Below, piece by piece: positions 12,728 to 34,968 of a stretch of 37,618 nucleotides of DNA. The stretch covers positions 1 to 37,618 of the forward strand of contig JANRJA010000237.1 in assembly GCA_033764315.1 (NCBI GenBank). Direction: 5' to 3'. Source of the stretch: Oculatellaceae cyanobacterium bins.114 (GTDB lineage: Bacteria > Cyanobacteriota > Cyanobacteriia > Elainellales > Elainellaceae). Made by a program: the position numbers and the translations under genes. Within the stretch, counting starts at the first letter, position 1; the number at the start of each line of letters is the position of its first letter. A model generated the notes under the pieces. It was not told the DNA's origin. It was given only the letters and a program-made list of their open reading frames with translations, and did not search any database.

Positions 12728-12913
12728 ATGGTTAGTGGGTCTTTAATTTGGAAACGGACACAACAAGTTACGCTGTCTCTGCCAATGCAAGCTAGTTTGC
12801 TCACTGGCTTGTGCATGTTGAGCCTCTGGACTTTTTACTTCTCGACTTACCCCCCTGCACACGACGCAGTTCACACGACTCGTCACAACACGTTGGCTGT
12901 AGCGTGTCACTAA
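12728..12913 (+). CDS. cbtB: CbtB-domain cobalt transporter subunit
   Basis: 61 aa, one TM segment and C-terminal HDAVHTTRH...ACH; downstream of a B12 riboswitch; start moved to ATG 12728. Confidence 0.85.
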   Translation: MVSGSLIWKRTQQVTLSLPMQASLLTGLCMLSLWTFYFSTYPPAHDAVHTTRHNTLAVACH

Positions 12914-31900: not shown

Positions 31901-31972
31901 CTCTACTCCTTGCCCATCTGTCAAACTAGAACATGGTGGTATTTTTAATGTGGTGTGGTCAGGAGACATGAA

Positions 31973-32461
31973 GTGATGATGGTCGGGATTGCCTTTTTCG
32001 TTGGTGCTTTTATATTTGCCAGTTTTGTGGAGTATTGGATCCATCGTTTGATGCATGCGTCGCCCAAAGTCGGTGAGCGTCATCGCGATCACCATCGCCG
32101 TAACGAAGGACAAGGGGTAGTGTGGGAATTTCGCGACTATGTCAAGGGCAGTGCGATCGCCATGTTTATCCCATTTTTGTTTTCAGTTGAAGCGGGGATT
32201 GGTTGGCTCAGCGGTGCATTGGTGTTTGCTGCTTTTTCTGCCTATGCTCACCAACTTCAACACGAGAACCCGATCAAGTGTTTTTGGATGAAGATGCCCG
32301 TTCACTACGTCCACCATCGCTATGGCATGTGGCATCACAATTTTGGTTTAGCGGTCGATTGGTGGGATCACGTCTTTCGCACCTACAAGCTAGTGGAATG
32401 GCGGGCTGAAGCGGAACAAAAGATTCCCCCTCGTGGTTATTTAGAACTCCGTTGGTGGTAG
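31973..32461 (+). CDS. Sterol desaturase/fatty-acid hydroxylase family protein
   Basis: His boxes EYWIHRLMH, HRDHH, HQLQH, HYVHH and NFG; AGGAG at 31961. Confidence 0.88.
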   Translation: MMMVGIAFFVGAFIFASFVEYWIHRLMHASPKVGERHRDHHRRNEGQGVVWEFRDYVKGSAIAMFIPFLFSVEAGIGWLSGALVFAAFSAYAHQLQHENPIKCFWMKMPVHYVHHRYGMWHHNFGLAVDWWDHVFRTYKLVEWRAEAEQKIPPRGYLELRWW

Positions 32462-32479: not shown

Positions 32480-32512
32480 AGTTCCCCGGAAGTTTGAAGC
32501 TTCCGGGGAACT
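32480..32512. terminator. 13-bp stem hairpin between convergent genes
   Basis: agttccccggaag/cttccggggaact. Confidence 0.75.
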
Positions 32513-32517
32513 AGGCT

Positions 32518-33378
32518 TTAAACCAACGAAAGTCGGGGTGTAGTCCCGGCTCCGACAGGGATCGATCGCCCAACGGCAGCTGCGATCGCCCGCAAACTCC
32601 GCACTAAACTCACCATTTCGTCGAGAGAGAGAGCCTGACGCGCATCAGACACCGACTTTTCCGGTTCGGGGTGACACTCCACCATGACTCCATCAGCACC
32701 ACAGGCGATCGCGGCTCTTGCCAAATCAGCTACCAGTTCTCGCTTGCCAGCAGCATGACTAGGATCAACAATGACAGGCAGATGAGTGATTTGCTTCAGT
32801 GCGACTACGGCTCCCAAATCCAACACGTTGCGAGTGTAGGTGTCGAAACTGCGAATGCCCCGTTCACAGAGAATCACGTTGGGGTTACCGTGGCTAAGAA
32901 TGTATTCCGCTGCCATAACAAACTCTTCAACTGTGGCAGCGAGTCCGCGCTTGAGCACGATGGGCTTATTCACCTGACCCAGTGCTTTTAACAGGTCAAA
33001 GTTTTGCATGTTGCGGCTACCGACCTGCAATACATCAGCATGAGTCACGATTTCATCAATTTGGGAAATTGCCATTACCTCAGTGATGACAGGCATATCA
33101 TATTGCTTGCGAATCGAGCTGAGAATTTGTAATCCCTCTAACCCCATGCCTTGAAAGTCATAGGGAGAGGTGCGGGGTTTATAGACTCCCCCTCGTAATG
33201 CTTGAACTGGAGCATGAGTCAATTGACTGGCAACGGCTTCCATTTGAGCTTGGCTCTCAACAGAGCAAGGTCCGCCCACAATTAAGAGGTTTTCGCCTCC
33301 CACTGTCACCTGATCAGACAGACGAATCACGGTTGTTTGAACGGAATCAGTTTTGAGAGCGAGTTTAGCCTTTTGCAC
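32518..33378 (-). CDS. aroF: DAHP synthase, type I-beta (short form)
   Basis: [37 protein letters not shown] and DPSH motifs; GTG start with AAGGAG RBS. Confidence 0.96.
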
Positions 33379-33449
33379 AAGAATCTCCTTATGAAATTGA
33401 GTTGTAGACGGTGTACGAGGAAAACGAAATAGGCAAGAGGTGAGGCATT

Positions 33450-33480
33450 AAAAAACCCGGTTCCTTTTAGGTTCCGGGTT
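33450..33480 (-). terminator. Attenuator terminator 2 (proximal)
   Basis: AACCCGG-aacctaaaaggaa-CCGGGTTTTTT on the minus strand. Confidence 0.85.
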
Positions 33481-33503
33481 CTCTACGAGAATGCATGACT
33501 AAG

Positions 33504-33575
33504 TCACCCGGAGTGGTTCCTGGTCCAAAAAAAGTAAAAGCTAAAGCTGAACTGGAATTGGGTGAGCATGGTCAT
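33504..33575 (-). CDS. Aromatic-rich leader peptide 2, MTMLTQFQFSFSFYFFWTRNHSG
   Basis: Translated by hand; 6 Phe, 1 Tyr and 1 Trp within 11 codons; followed by terminator 2. Confidence 0.8.
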   Translation of the reverse strand: MTMLTQFQFSFSFYFFWTRNHSG

Positions 33576-33610
33576 ATCCTGAAAGTTACGTCTTGAAAAC
33601 GAAGCTACAT

Positions 33611-33642
33611 AAAACAAAAACCGCAGAGTTTGTTCTGCGGTT
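33611..33642 (-). terminator. Attenuator terminator 1 (distal)
   Basis: AACCGCAGA-acaaac-TCTGCGGTTTTTGTTTT on the minus strand. Confidence 0.85.
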
Positions 33643-33669
33643 CACCTGAGGTTCCATGACAATCTGGAC

Positions 33670-33726
33670 TCACCCCTGGTGAACCTGTCTAAACCAAAAA
33701 TAAAAATAGGACGTGGAGCAACGCAT
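33670..33726 (-). CDS. Aromatic-rich leader peptide 1, MRCSTSYFYFWFRQVHQG
   Basis: Translated by hand; six consecutive aromatic codons YFYFWF; followed by terminator 1. Confidence 0.8.
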   Translation of the reverse strand: MRCSTSYFYFWFRQVHQG

Positions 33727-33775
33727 AAATCTTGCGACAAGCTTCGCGGTTTTTGTGATGACTAACTTGTTAACA

Positions 33776-33805
33776 ACCGTATCAAGGATAGCAAAGGAAC
33801 GTCAA
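33776..33805 (-). promoter_or_regulatory. Candidate sigma70 promoter of the aroF leader
   Basis: TTGACG-N18-TACGGT with an extended TG. Confidence 0.5.
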
Positions 33806-33942
33806 GTACCCAAGTGGGGGAGATGGGGTAAAGAGACCCGATTCATCCTGTCTGTCCCTGACTCCTCACCTGTCCTCACTCTGTGCTATGGTGGCTATGC
33901 GTTATCTTCATGTGATTGAAGGGATGTTGAGGAACCAAAATC

Positions 33943-34968
33943 ATGATTGAAGTCGAGCACCTCAGCAAAGTTTACGGTTCTACCGCTGCCATTGAGGATG
34001 TTAATTTCTCAGTGGAAAAAGGTGAAATTATGGGCTTTTTAGGCCCTAATGGAGCCGGAAAAACAACCACTATGCGCATCTTAACGGGTTATTTACCTGC
34101 CACTCAGGGCACTGCCCGAATTGCTGGATTTGATGTGCATGAAAATTCGATGGCGGTGCGACAGCGCATCGGCTATCTGCCAGAGACACCTCCTCTGTAT
34201 CCAGAAATGACCGTCGAGGGCTTTTTATATTTTGTGTCTCGCATCAAAGGAGTTGCCGCGGGCGATCGCACCAACCGAGTGCAATCGGCGTTATCACGCT
34301 GTAACTTGCTTGAAAAGCGGCATGTGCTGATTCGCAAGCTATCTAAAGGATTTCGCCAACGAGTGGGCATTGCTCAGGCGATCGTGCATGATCCCCCTGC
34401 GATTATTTTGGATGAACCCACTGTAGGGCTTGATCCCCGTCAAATTATTGATGTTCGCAACCTGATCAAAAGCTTGGCAGGCGATCACACCATTATTCTC
34501 TCGACCCATATTTTGCCGGAGGTCAGCATGACCTGCAACCGGGTAGCTATCATTAACCGGGGTCAGGTTGTAGCCACCAATACCCCAGATCAGTTGGTGG
34601 CTCAATTGGCAGGAGGGTTGCGCTATGAGCTAGAGGTCGAGGGTGAGTTTGATGCTGTGCAAGACCGATTGCACAATTTGTCTGGCATGCAATCTCTAAA
34701 AACAACTCCAGTCGCTGAAAATCACGACTTCCCTAACCGTCACAAAATTATGTTGGAGTTGTCACCTGGAGTTGATCCCGGTCGAGAGATTGCGGCGATC
34801 GTCGTCGGGGCAGGACTGGGCTTATATGAGATGCGCCGCACCCAGGTCAGCTTAGAAGATGTCTTTTTGCAATTGACAACCGAAGAAAAAGTGGAAACTG
34901 AGGCGATCGCGCCTTCAGAATTGACACTTGACGAAGATCAACCAGACTCCAATGGAGAGGCAGCATAG
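33943..34968 (+). CDS. ABC transporter ATP-binding protein (ABC-2/GldA-like)
   Basis: GPNGAGKTT, LSKGFRQR, ILDEPT and STH motifs. Confidence 0.95.
   Translation: MIEVEHLSKVYGSTAAIEDVNFSVEKGEIMGFLGPNGAGKTTTMRILTGYLPATQGTARIAGFDVHENSMAVRQRIGYLPETPPLYPEMTVEGFLYFVSRIKGVAAGDRTNRVQSALSRCNLLEKRHVLIRKLSKGFRQRVGIAQAIVHDPPAIILDEPTVGLDPRQIIDVRNLIKSLAGDHTIILSTHILPEVSMTCNRVAIINRGQVVATNTPDQLVAQLAGGLRYELEVEGEFDAVQDRLHNLSGMQSLKTTPVAENHDFPNRHKIMLELSPGVDPGREIAAIVVGAGLGLYEMRRTQVSLEDVFLQLTTEEKVETEAIAPSELTLDEDQPDSNGEAA

Follow-up and report, generated by a model that had tools for sequence, protein, structure and literature searches.

Candidate leader-peptide attenuators in series upstream of a cyanobacterial DAHP synthase gene

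How might a cyanobacterial 3-deoxy-D-arabinoheptulosonate 7-phosphate (DAHP) synthase that probably cannot sense its end products be held under feedback control? The question is raised by an aroF paralog on the minus strand (32518..33378) of positions 1 to 37,618 of contig JANRJA010000237.1, from Oculatellaceae cyanobacterium bins.114; this whole 37,618-nt stretch is referred to here as the window. The gene encodes a 286-aa type I-beta DAHP synthase that is limited to the catalytic core. The shikimate pathway, into which the enzyme leads, feeds the aromatic amino acids, sunscreen pigments and many natural products. An earlier note on this DNA had proposed that two leader-peptide attenuators, each reading phenylalanine, tyrosine and tryptophan, stand in tandem in front of aroF. 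We read the minus-strand 5' region of aroF directly at the coordinates given below, and both short open reading frames (sORFs), both U-tailed hairpins and both competing pairings were present where the note had placed them. The tandem arrangement is supported by conservation, covariation, coding substitutions and strict linkage to aroF. Together, these results suggest that the 5' region of aroF is very probably transcribed as one RNA with two ribosome-mediated transcription attenuators in series.

In the proposed arrangement, each unit would consist of an sORF with six to eight clustered Phe, Tyr and Trp codons. Its last codons and stop codon would form the 5' arm of an antiterminator, and the 3' arm of this hairpin would also belong to a terminator with a U tail. 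With charged aromatic tRNAs in ample supply, the ribosome would reach the stop codon and cover the 5' arm, the terminator would fold and RNA polymerase would halt. When Phe-, Tyr- or Trp-tRNA is scarce, the ribosome would stall upstream, the antiterminator would fold first and the polymerase would continue. Transcription of aroF would require the passage of both terminators. We infer leader translation, termination at the hairpins, the response to amino acids and the multiplicative action of the units from the sequences described below.

Architecture of the two leader units

Relatives of the locus were collected by a search with the AroF protein, from which the best 80 of 535 related loci were taken. 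All 80 are cyanobacterial by title except one metagenome-assembled genome (MAG) labelled Candidatus Obscuribacter (L038). At least 394 nt of upstream DNA was available for 78 of the 80 loci, and the two with less than 110 nt were left out. Helix support was scored on alignments of the 78 sequences against 500 shuffles and slid-partner controls. The elements described in this section are all on the minus strand of the window.

Leader ORF 1, MRCSTSYFYFWFRQVHQG, occupies 33670..33726 (ATG at 33726, TGA at 33672-33670) and holds six aromatic codons at 33708-33691. Shortly downstream, GGUUCACC at 33685-33678 is complementary to GGUGAACC at 33646-33639. These segments belong to a predicted antiterminator hairpin (33639..33685) to which covariation, folding and RNAalifold all point; its 5' arm, GGUUCACCAGGGG (33685-33673), ends at the stop codon and its 3' arm is CCUCAGGUGAACC (33651-33639). 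The predicted folding energy is -23.9 kcal/mol (z = -3.9). The stop codon directly abuts the 5' arm, and the aromatic codons start 8-23 nt before it as counted in alignment columns. The 3' arm shares GAACC (33643-33639) with predicted intrinsic terminator 1 (33611..33643), which was detected by a terminator scan as well as by folding and covariation. This terminator reads GAACCGCAGA-ACAAAC-UCUGCGGUUU at 33643-33618, with a 10-bp stem that is followed by UUGUUUU (U-tract to 33611), and has a folding energy of -14.7 kcal/mol (z = -5.8). The core of its stem (CCGCAG...CUGCGG; window 33618-33640, alignment columns 116-141) is near-invariant in 78/78 sequences. No third pairing partner for this core was found, and a CGCAG-like word in the 5' untranslated region that could pair with the 3' arm of the terminator was rejected as it is not conserved across clades.

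Leader ORF 2, (MT)MLTQFQFSFSFYFFWTRNHSG, occupies 33504..33575 and runs from 33575 to a TGA at 33506-33504. A second ATG at 33569 lies 8 nt after AGGA and is the more likely start, giving MLTQFQFSFSFYFFWTRNHSG, because its spacing from AGGA is better and because it agrees with the ML-T starts of close relatives. The segment UCCGGGU (33512-33506) spans the end of the peptide frame and one base, the first, of its stop codon; its complement, ACCCGGA, is found at 33479-33473 in the 5' arm of terminator 2. Antiterminator 2 (33473..33512), predicted from this pairing by covariation and folding, has a folding energy of -14.1 kcal/mol in the window. Its stop codon overlaps the 5' arm, and all eight aromatic codons start 13-34 nt before that arm in alignment columns. 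Predicted intrinsic terminator 2 (33450..33480), for which folding and covariation again provide the evidence, consists of AACCCGGAACC, a loop and GGAACCGGGUU at 33480-33454, with six U in all and a U-tract to 33450. Its folding energy is -12.9 kcal/mol, and it was missed by a simple scan because of a 2x2 internal loop. Antiterminator 2 occupies nine of the ten bases of the 5' arm of this terminator. With the stop codon set directly after the 5' arm in unit 1 and running into it in unit 2, a terminating ribosome would bury the arm and allow the terminator to form.

RNAalifold also proposed an outer helix in unit 2, between UUUGG of the Phe-Trp codons and CCGGG of the terminator 2 3' arm. It was not counted because, though 99% paired, it contains three G-U wobbles and shows almost no covariation. 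The sequence between the leader-2 stop codon and terminator 2 is strongly conserved.

Both leaders lie between a conserved predicted promoter and aroF, on the same strand as aroF. The predicted promoter, of sigma-70 type, is at 33776..33805, with a -35 element TTGACG (33805-33800) and a -10 element TACGGT (33781-33776). When the 78 sequences were aligned with MAFFT, the DNA upstream of leader 1 showed a conserved TTGAC block with columns at least 90% identical, a spacing of 17-18 nt and TAnnnT. The promoter is absent from the listing of a simple consensus scan of the window.

Conservation, covariation and linkage to aroF

Alignment across cyanobacterial relatives bore out the conservation of the sORFs. 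Leader 1 is carried by 77 of the 78 loci, and the leader-2 frame was found in all 78, with the usual stop codon lost in L066. The exception for leader 1 is L043, in which unrelated DNA lies upstream of a leader-2 frame that has no start codon; this architecture suggests a rearrangement or an assembly join. In the aligned sequences leader 1 starts with ATG in 78/78 and is 16-22 aa long, and leader 2 starts with ATG in 66, with GTG or TTG in 11 and with none of these in 1. The earlier note had each leader reading all three aromatic amino acids, and F, Y and W are indeed all present in leader 1 of 75/78 sequences and in leader 2 of 76/78, with a median of 7 and 8 aromatic residues, respectively. 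Its further claim that the second unit is weighted to Phe is true of this window but does not extend to the family, the consensus of which is WFYGFYFW. The aromatic positions are 85-100% aromatic across the sequences, and the two units do not differ in how well their aromatic codons are conserved. Within these codon columns TAC alternates with TAT and TTT with TTC, and the changes of amino acid are mostly aromatic-for-aromatic. The leader-2 stop column contains TAA (48), TGA (15) and TAG (14). The N-terminal residues of the leaders vary freely. This codon pattern is what translated frames would show.

A single aromatic-rich sORF would be unremarkable for a window this large. With a 5-of-8 filter, 3 distinct aromatic-rich sORFs (4 nested starts) were found among the 482 sORFs of the window, and 20 shuffles gave 0-3. 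The tandem before aroF is not attributed to chance because its members form an adjacent pair, each with a terminator, that is kept in 77-78 of the 78 loci. The third frame that passes the filter, MLSLWTFYFSTYPP..., begins at window position 12815 on the plus strand and is probably due to chance, since shuffled windows give 0-3 such frames.

The alternative stems covary, a point that the earlier note had proposed to check. Antiterminator 1 is paired in 88.4% of cells, with 60 compensatory cells and 6 pairs changed on both sides, and terminator 1 in 96.7%, with 13 compensatory cells. For antiterminator 2 the corresponding values are 93.4% (96.8% on a second alignment), 16 compensatory cells and 3 pairs changed on both sides, and for terminator 2 they are 93.3% and 37 compensatory cells. 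The compensatory values of all four helices were reached in 0 of 500 shuffles, and sliding the partners reduced pairing sharply. The closing pair of terminator 2 is A-U in 39 sequences and G-C in 32, and the U-tract columns of both terminators are at least 90% T. RNAalifold, run unguided, predicted antiterminator 1 and terminator 1. A base common to these two helices changes from A to G in 8 sequences; in those 8, its partner in terminator 1 changes from U to C and antiterminator 1 retains a G-U pair. In leader 1, CAC is replaced by CGC (His to Arg) in 13 sequences, and these are exactly the ones with GGCGAAC in place of GGUGAAC. The conserved 'VH' of leader 1 therefore reflects a constraint on the RNA. 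The leader coding regions are U-rich and variable. A search of 33000-34200 with Rfam cmscan at E up to 10 returned chance-level hits only (AaHKsRNA41, U6atac and Six3os1_3), and Trp_leader, Phe_leader and the other leader families of Rfam had no covariance-model match in this interval.

The distribution of the device was examined with covariance models of unit 1 (R1) and unit 2 (R2) in a phylum sample of 150 further genomes, 52 of the window's class and 98 outside it. Each model matches the window's own genome once. R1 has strong matches in 20/150 genomes and R2 in 19/150, one per genome, and all of these fall among the 52 genomes of the class (20/52 with the device). Among the 98 genomes sampled outside the class there was no credible match. 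A weak R1 match in G138 (E = 0.003) was rejected as a look-alike terminator without a leader or a nearby aroF. In all 20 strong unit-1 loci, the window's included, an aroF homolog follows on the same strand at a distance of 55-330 nt. In a protein search of the 150 genomes, a close AroF homolog, the short paralog (67-79% identity, E <=1.7e-123), is present in 20/150; a relative of ~350 aa with ~50% identity is present in nearly all 150, with a best E of 1.8e-90. The 20 genomes with the short paralog are exactly those with an intact unit: 18 have the tandem, and the remaining two have a single unit, unit 1 in one genome and unit 2 in the other.

The two single-unit loci differ in which unit is kept. 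In G038 (L100), promoter, leader 1, hairpin and terminator 1 are followed after ~65 nt by an intact aroF, and there is no unit 2. In G089 (L103), unit 2 alone stands behind its own promoter-like sequence. A further locus, in G050 (L101), is decayed: leader 1 and its hairpin are intact, and a deletion joins the 5' arm of terminator 1 to an internal aroF fragment that could be matched over ~80 aa at 47% identity, with unit 2 and the start of the gene gone. The MAG titled Candidatus Obscuribacter carries both leaders before an aroF of 73% identity. Mis-binning or gene transfer should be considered here, because the device was found in no sampled genome outside the class.

The clues by which the earlier note had suggested that one unit arose from the other by duplication did not hold across the family. 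GGG-TGA ends leader 1 in only 16/77 loci, and GTCATG follows unit 1 in 2/77 and unit 2 in 25/77. A hidden Markov model of unit 1, run against the 78 unit-2 sequences, gave a best E of 3e-4 and 69 hits at E <=10, compared to 1 in shuffled controls; the hits mostly cover the aromatic codon stretch alone. With the unit-1 covariance model, no hit to unit 2 was obtained at E up to 1 in the genome of the window itself. A common origin of the two units is neither shown nor excluded by these comparisons.

The downstream enzyme and the weighing of mechanisms

The downstream gene starts with GTG at 33378, 7 nt after AAGGAG, and its product is a DAHP synthase, as the earlier note had read it. The protein matches NF006421 with 399.3 bits (cut-off 335; profile positions 68-336 of 338), TIGR01361 with 358.8 bits (cut-off 267.75) and PF00793 with 268 bits. 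A Pfam search of the protein returned PF00793 only and no PF18152. In contrast, PF18152 occupies residues 1-67 (E = 1.9e-17) in the common 352-aa paralog, taken here from another cyanobacterium (L106); the 286-aa protein aligns with it at 52% identity, and only over the catalytic barrel. In the DAHP synthase of Thermotoga, the ferredoxin-like domain mediates inhibition by Tyr and Phe. On another contig, C156, the window's genome encodes a PF00793 protein of 361 aa; a class II DAHP synthase was not found in that genome. Since the N-terminal ferredoxin-like regulatory domain PF18152 is missing, the attenuators probably govern an extra DAHP synthase isoenzyme that is blind to feedback. Attenuation would then supply the end-product feedback that the protein, without its allosteric domain, cannot sense.

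For attenuation to work, a ribosome stalled on the aromatic codons should leave the antiterminator arm free. Counted from the first base of the A-site codon, a ribosome reaches ~12 nt further according to toeprinting work, and this value was assumed in the mask used below. With this reach, the arm would stay free during stalls at every aromatic codon of unit 2 and at the first four aromatic codons of unit 1. An equilibrium folding model with a ribosome mask was run over all 78 sequences. For unit 1, stalls on Tyr-Phe-Tyr-Phe gave a terminator-foot probability of ~0.5 (0.32-0.38 in the window), and in this model unit 1 is roughly bistable. Termination itself would be by the expected route: Rho is described as absent from Cyanobacteriota (PMC12360218), which makes an intrinsic terminator the expected stop device.

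Several points weigh against two working attenuators in series. For leader 1, a clear Shine-Dalgarno sequence is missing. The overlap of antiterminator 1 with terminator 1 is just 5 nt, which makes them alternative pairings in a weak sense, and the sequence of the terminator 1 stem is more invariant than pairing needs, a hint of a further constraint. In the masked model the terminator of unit 1 forms with a probability of 0.93-1.0 from the Trp codon onward; relief by unit 1 may be incomplete, and this unit may sense Trp poorly. For unit 2, the terminator is favoured over the antiterminator at equilibrium in the model. Antitermination there must rely on the antiterminator folding first, in an assumed co-transcriptional order that is accepted for classical attenuators. 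For neither antiterminator 5' arm was a conserved upstream partner found that could form a trp-style 1:2 pause or anti-antiterminator hairpin. Finally, coupling of translation to transcription in cyanobacteria is a premise of the mechanism and is assumed.

Some of these points favour a different explanation, in which only unit 2 is a regulated attenuator and unit 1 is a leaky, largely constitutive terminator, or a translated sORF with a hairpin that serves some other purpose, for instance in transcript stability or in polymerase pausing. The overlap is 5 nt in unit 1, whereas it takes in the whole 5' arm in unit 2, and the equilibrium model gives unit 1 at best about half relief. With the leader RNA free, an 8-bp terminator 1 persists in the minimum-energy fold; when the leader is masked, however, unit 1 of the window folds as the full antiterminator and a terminator cut to a 5-bp stump, 2 nt off the U-tract. 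The locus in G089 works with unit 2 alone, but G038 has unit 1 alone before an intact aroF. In addition, the base pair shared by the two unit 1 helices covaries in a manner compatible with both, and the aromatic codons of unit 1 are no less conserved than those of unit 2. We regard a regulatory role for unit 2 alone as improbable; if it were true, the tandem logic would be weaker than proposed.

Both units also resemble free-standing short genes with terminators, and many small proteins are encoded by cyanobacteria. The sORFs might accordingly be functional hydrophobic micro-proteins, or the RNAs small regulatory RNAs with ends set by their own terminators, and their position before aroF would be incidental. 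Against this, amino-acid conservation is limited to the aromatic run with the N-termini left free, changes in the C-terminal residues are matched by changes in their RNA partners, each element is found once per genome and with aroF only, and the device has decayed where aroF has decayed (G050). We consider this explanation very unlikely. Equally hard to credit is a riboswitch that binds a ligand or a protein, such as a leader sensing tRNA, an amino acid or a protein, in which translation of the frames is irrelevant: the strong conservation of the terminator 1 stem and of the segment from the leader-2 stop to terminator 2 would fit one, but no Rfam family matched at an E of 3 or better, and the third-position and aromatic-for-aromatic substitutions, the conserved starts and the use of three stop codons indicate reading by ribosomes.

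Within the preferred arrangement of two attenuators in series, the units may not be equivalent. A tentative and rather doubtful extension is that they are two differently built, non-redundant sensors that act as an AND gate before a DAHP synthase blind to feedback. In unit 1, the switch would be near equilibrium and its overlap partial, with the first Tyr and Phe codons doing most of the sensing. In unit 2, the switch would be kinetically trapped and its overlap full, with all eight codons, two of them for Trp, being read. The response of the pair to a shortage of any aromatic amino acid would be steep and multiplicative. The sensed codons (UUU/UUC, UAU/UAC and UGG; window 33691-33708 and 33522-33557) all begin with U, and UNN codons are the class read by tRNAs that have the MiaA-dependent modification at position 37. 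Since all sensed codons are of this class, such a gate would also report the state of position-37 isopentenylation. MiaA has been linked to tryptophan attenuation in a report on Pseudomonas (PMC13434334). If true, the AND-gate reading would connect tRNA modification to entry into the shikimate pathway.

Related systems and neighbouring features

Leader-peptide attenuation is a textbook mechanism of proteobacteria and actinobacteria, and translation-coupled transcription control has, to our knowledge, been little explored in cyanobacteria. In E. coli, DAHP synthase is controlled by the TyrR and TrpR repressors. By analogy, the nearest functional counterpart of the cyanobacterial device is aroR-aroF of C. 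glutamicum (Neshat et al. 2014), described as a Phe-Tyr-Phe leader before a DAHP synthase operon (PMC11802643, cited in PMC8079986). As in the cyanobacterial device, clustered aromatic codons precede a DAHP synthase gene, and stalling is reported to raise its transcription (PMC11802643). In that account aroR-aroF is a single unit in another phylum, and no Trp codon is reported in its motif (PMC11802643). The cyanobacterial device, compared here by description alone, has two units, each with 6-8 codons for all three amino acids.

The E. coli trpL and pheL leaders, as described in PMC11802643, share with the cyanobacterial units an ORF rich in the regulated codons, a mutually exclusive antiterminator and terminator, and the placement of the stop codon. 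Unlike trpL and pheL, the cyanobacterial device is without a 1:2 segment and an Rfam leader match, each of its leaders would read three amino acids rather than one, its two units are serial, and its target is DAHP synthase. A candidate Phe-codon upstream ORF of Acholeplasma, uORFC-13-1 (Brewer et al. 2021), is reported exclusively upstream of aroF with an intrinsic terminator (PMC8632094). Here too an aromatic-codon ORF lies directly before the terminator, upstream of aroF; as described, uORFC-13-1 is a single unit known from Acholeplasma and environmental sequences only, and its U-run codes for at least one Phe (PMC8632094). The likeness is one of layout, taken from the description, with no sequence relationship shown.

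In the Salmonella mgtCBR leader, two ORFs reportedly sense different signals, and the operon is said not to be one of amino-acid biosynthesis; in contrast, both cyanobacterial units would read the same three amino acids. Each of the two short mgtCBR ORFs is thought to govern a choice of stem-loop (Lee and Groisman 2012, PMC3641672). The resemblance, as far as that account goes, is that two short ORFs in one long leader control transcription into the coding region (PMC3641672). A cyanobacterial peptide RNA, ncl0160, was also compared. It encodes 23-25 aa in heterocystous cyanobacteria, is described as conserved in 83 strains (PMC4734099), and was rejected as a match to the aroF device, being a different element. 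No report of the cyanobacterial aroF leader device was found in the full-text literature, a scope outside which subscription-only papers and transcriptome supplementary tables fall; these might include an unannotated transcript from a locus of this kind.

As read from the sequence, the mechanism would be ordinary in kind, and what is new would be the phylum, the homotypic tandem architecture and the target, a DAHP synthase without a regulatory domain. If true, ribosome-mediated attenuation would thereby be documented for the first time in cyanobacteria. The device, well delimited and of broad phylogenetic spread (20/52 sampled genomes of the class), would offer an experimental handle on the coupling of ribosome and RNA polymerase in cyanobacteria, on what serial attenuators add to a response curve, and on how carbon entry into the shikimate pathway is set. 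The natural single-unit variants could be used as controls for the homotypic tandem, and the device may provide a compact amino-acid-responsive part for cyanobacterial engineering.

Some further features were observed around the gene. Four Nostoc loci (L034, L035, L041 and L044) have heptamer-type tandem repeats, such as GGGGACT and CCCAATG, between terminator 2 and the aroF start, and these runs lengthen the spacer to 200-300 nt. On the other side of aroF in the window, a 168-aa ORF rich in His boxes (HRLMH, HRDHH and HHRYGMWHH) at 31955-32461 on the plus strand converges on the gene; it had no NCBIfam match. Between aroF and this ORF lies a GC-rich hairpin, CCCCGGAAG...CUUCCGGGG, at 32488-32512.

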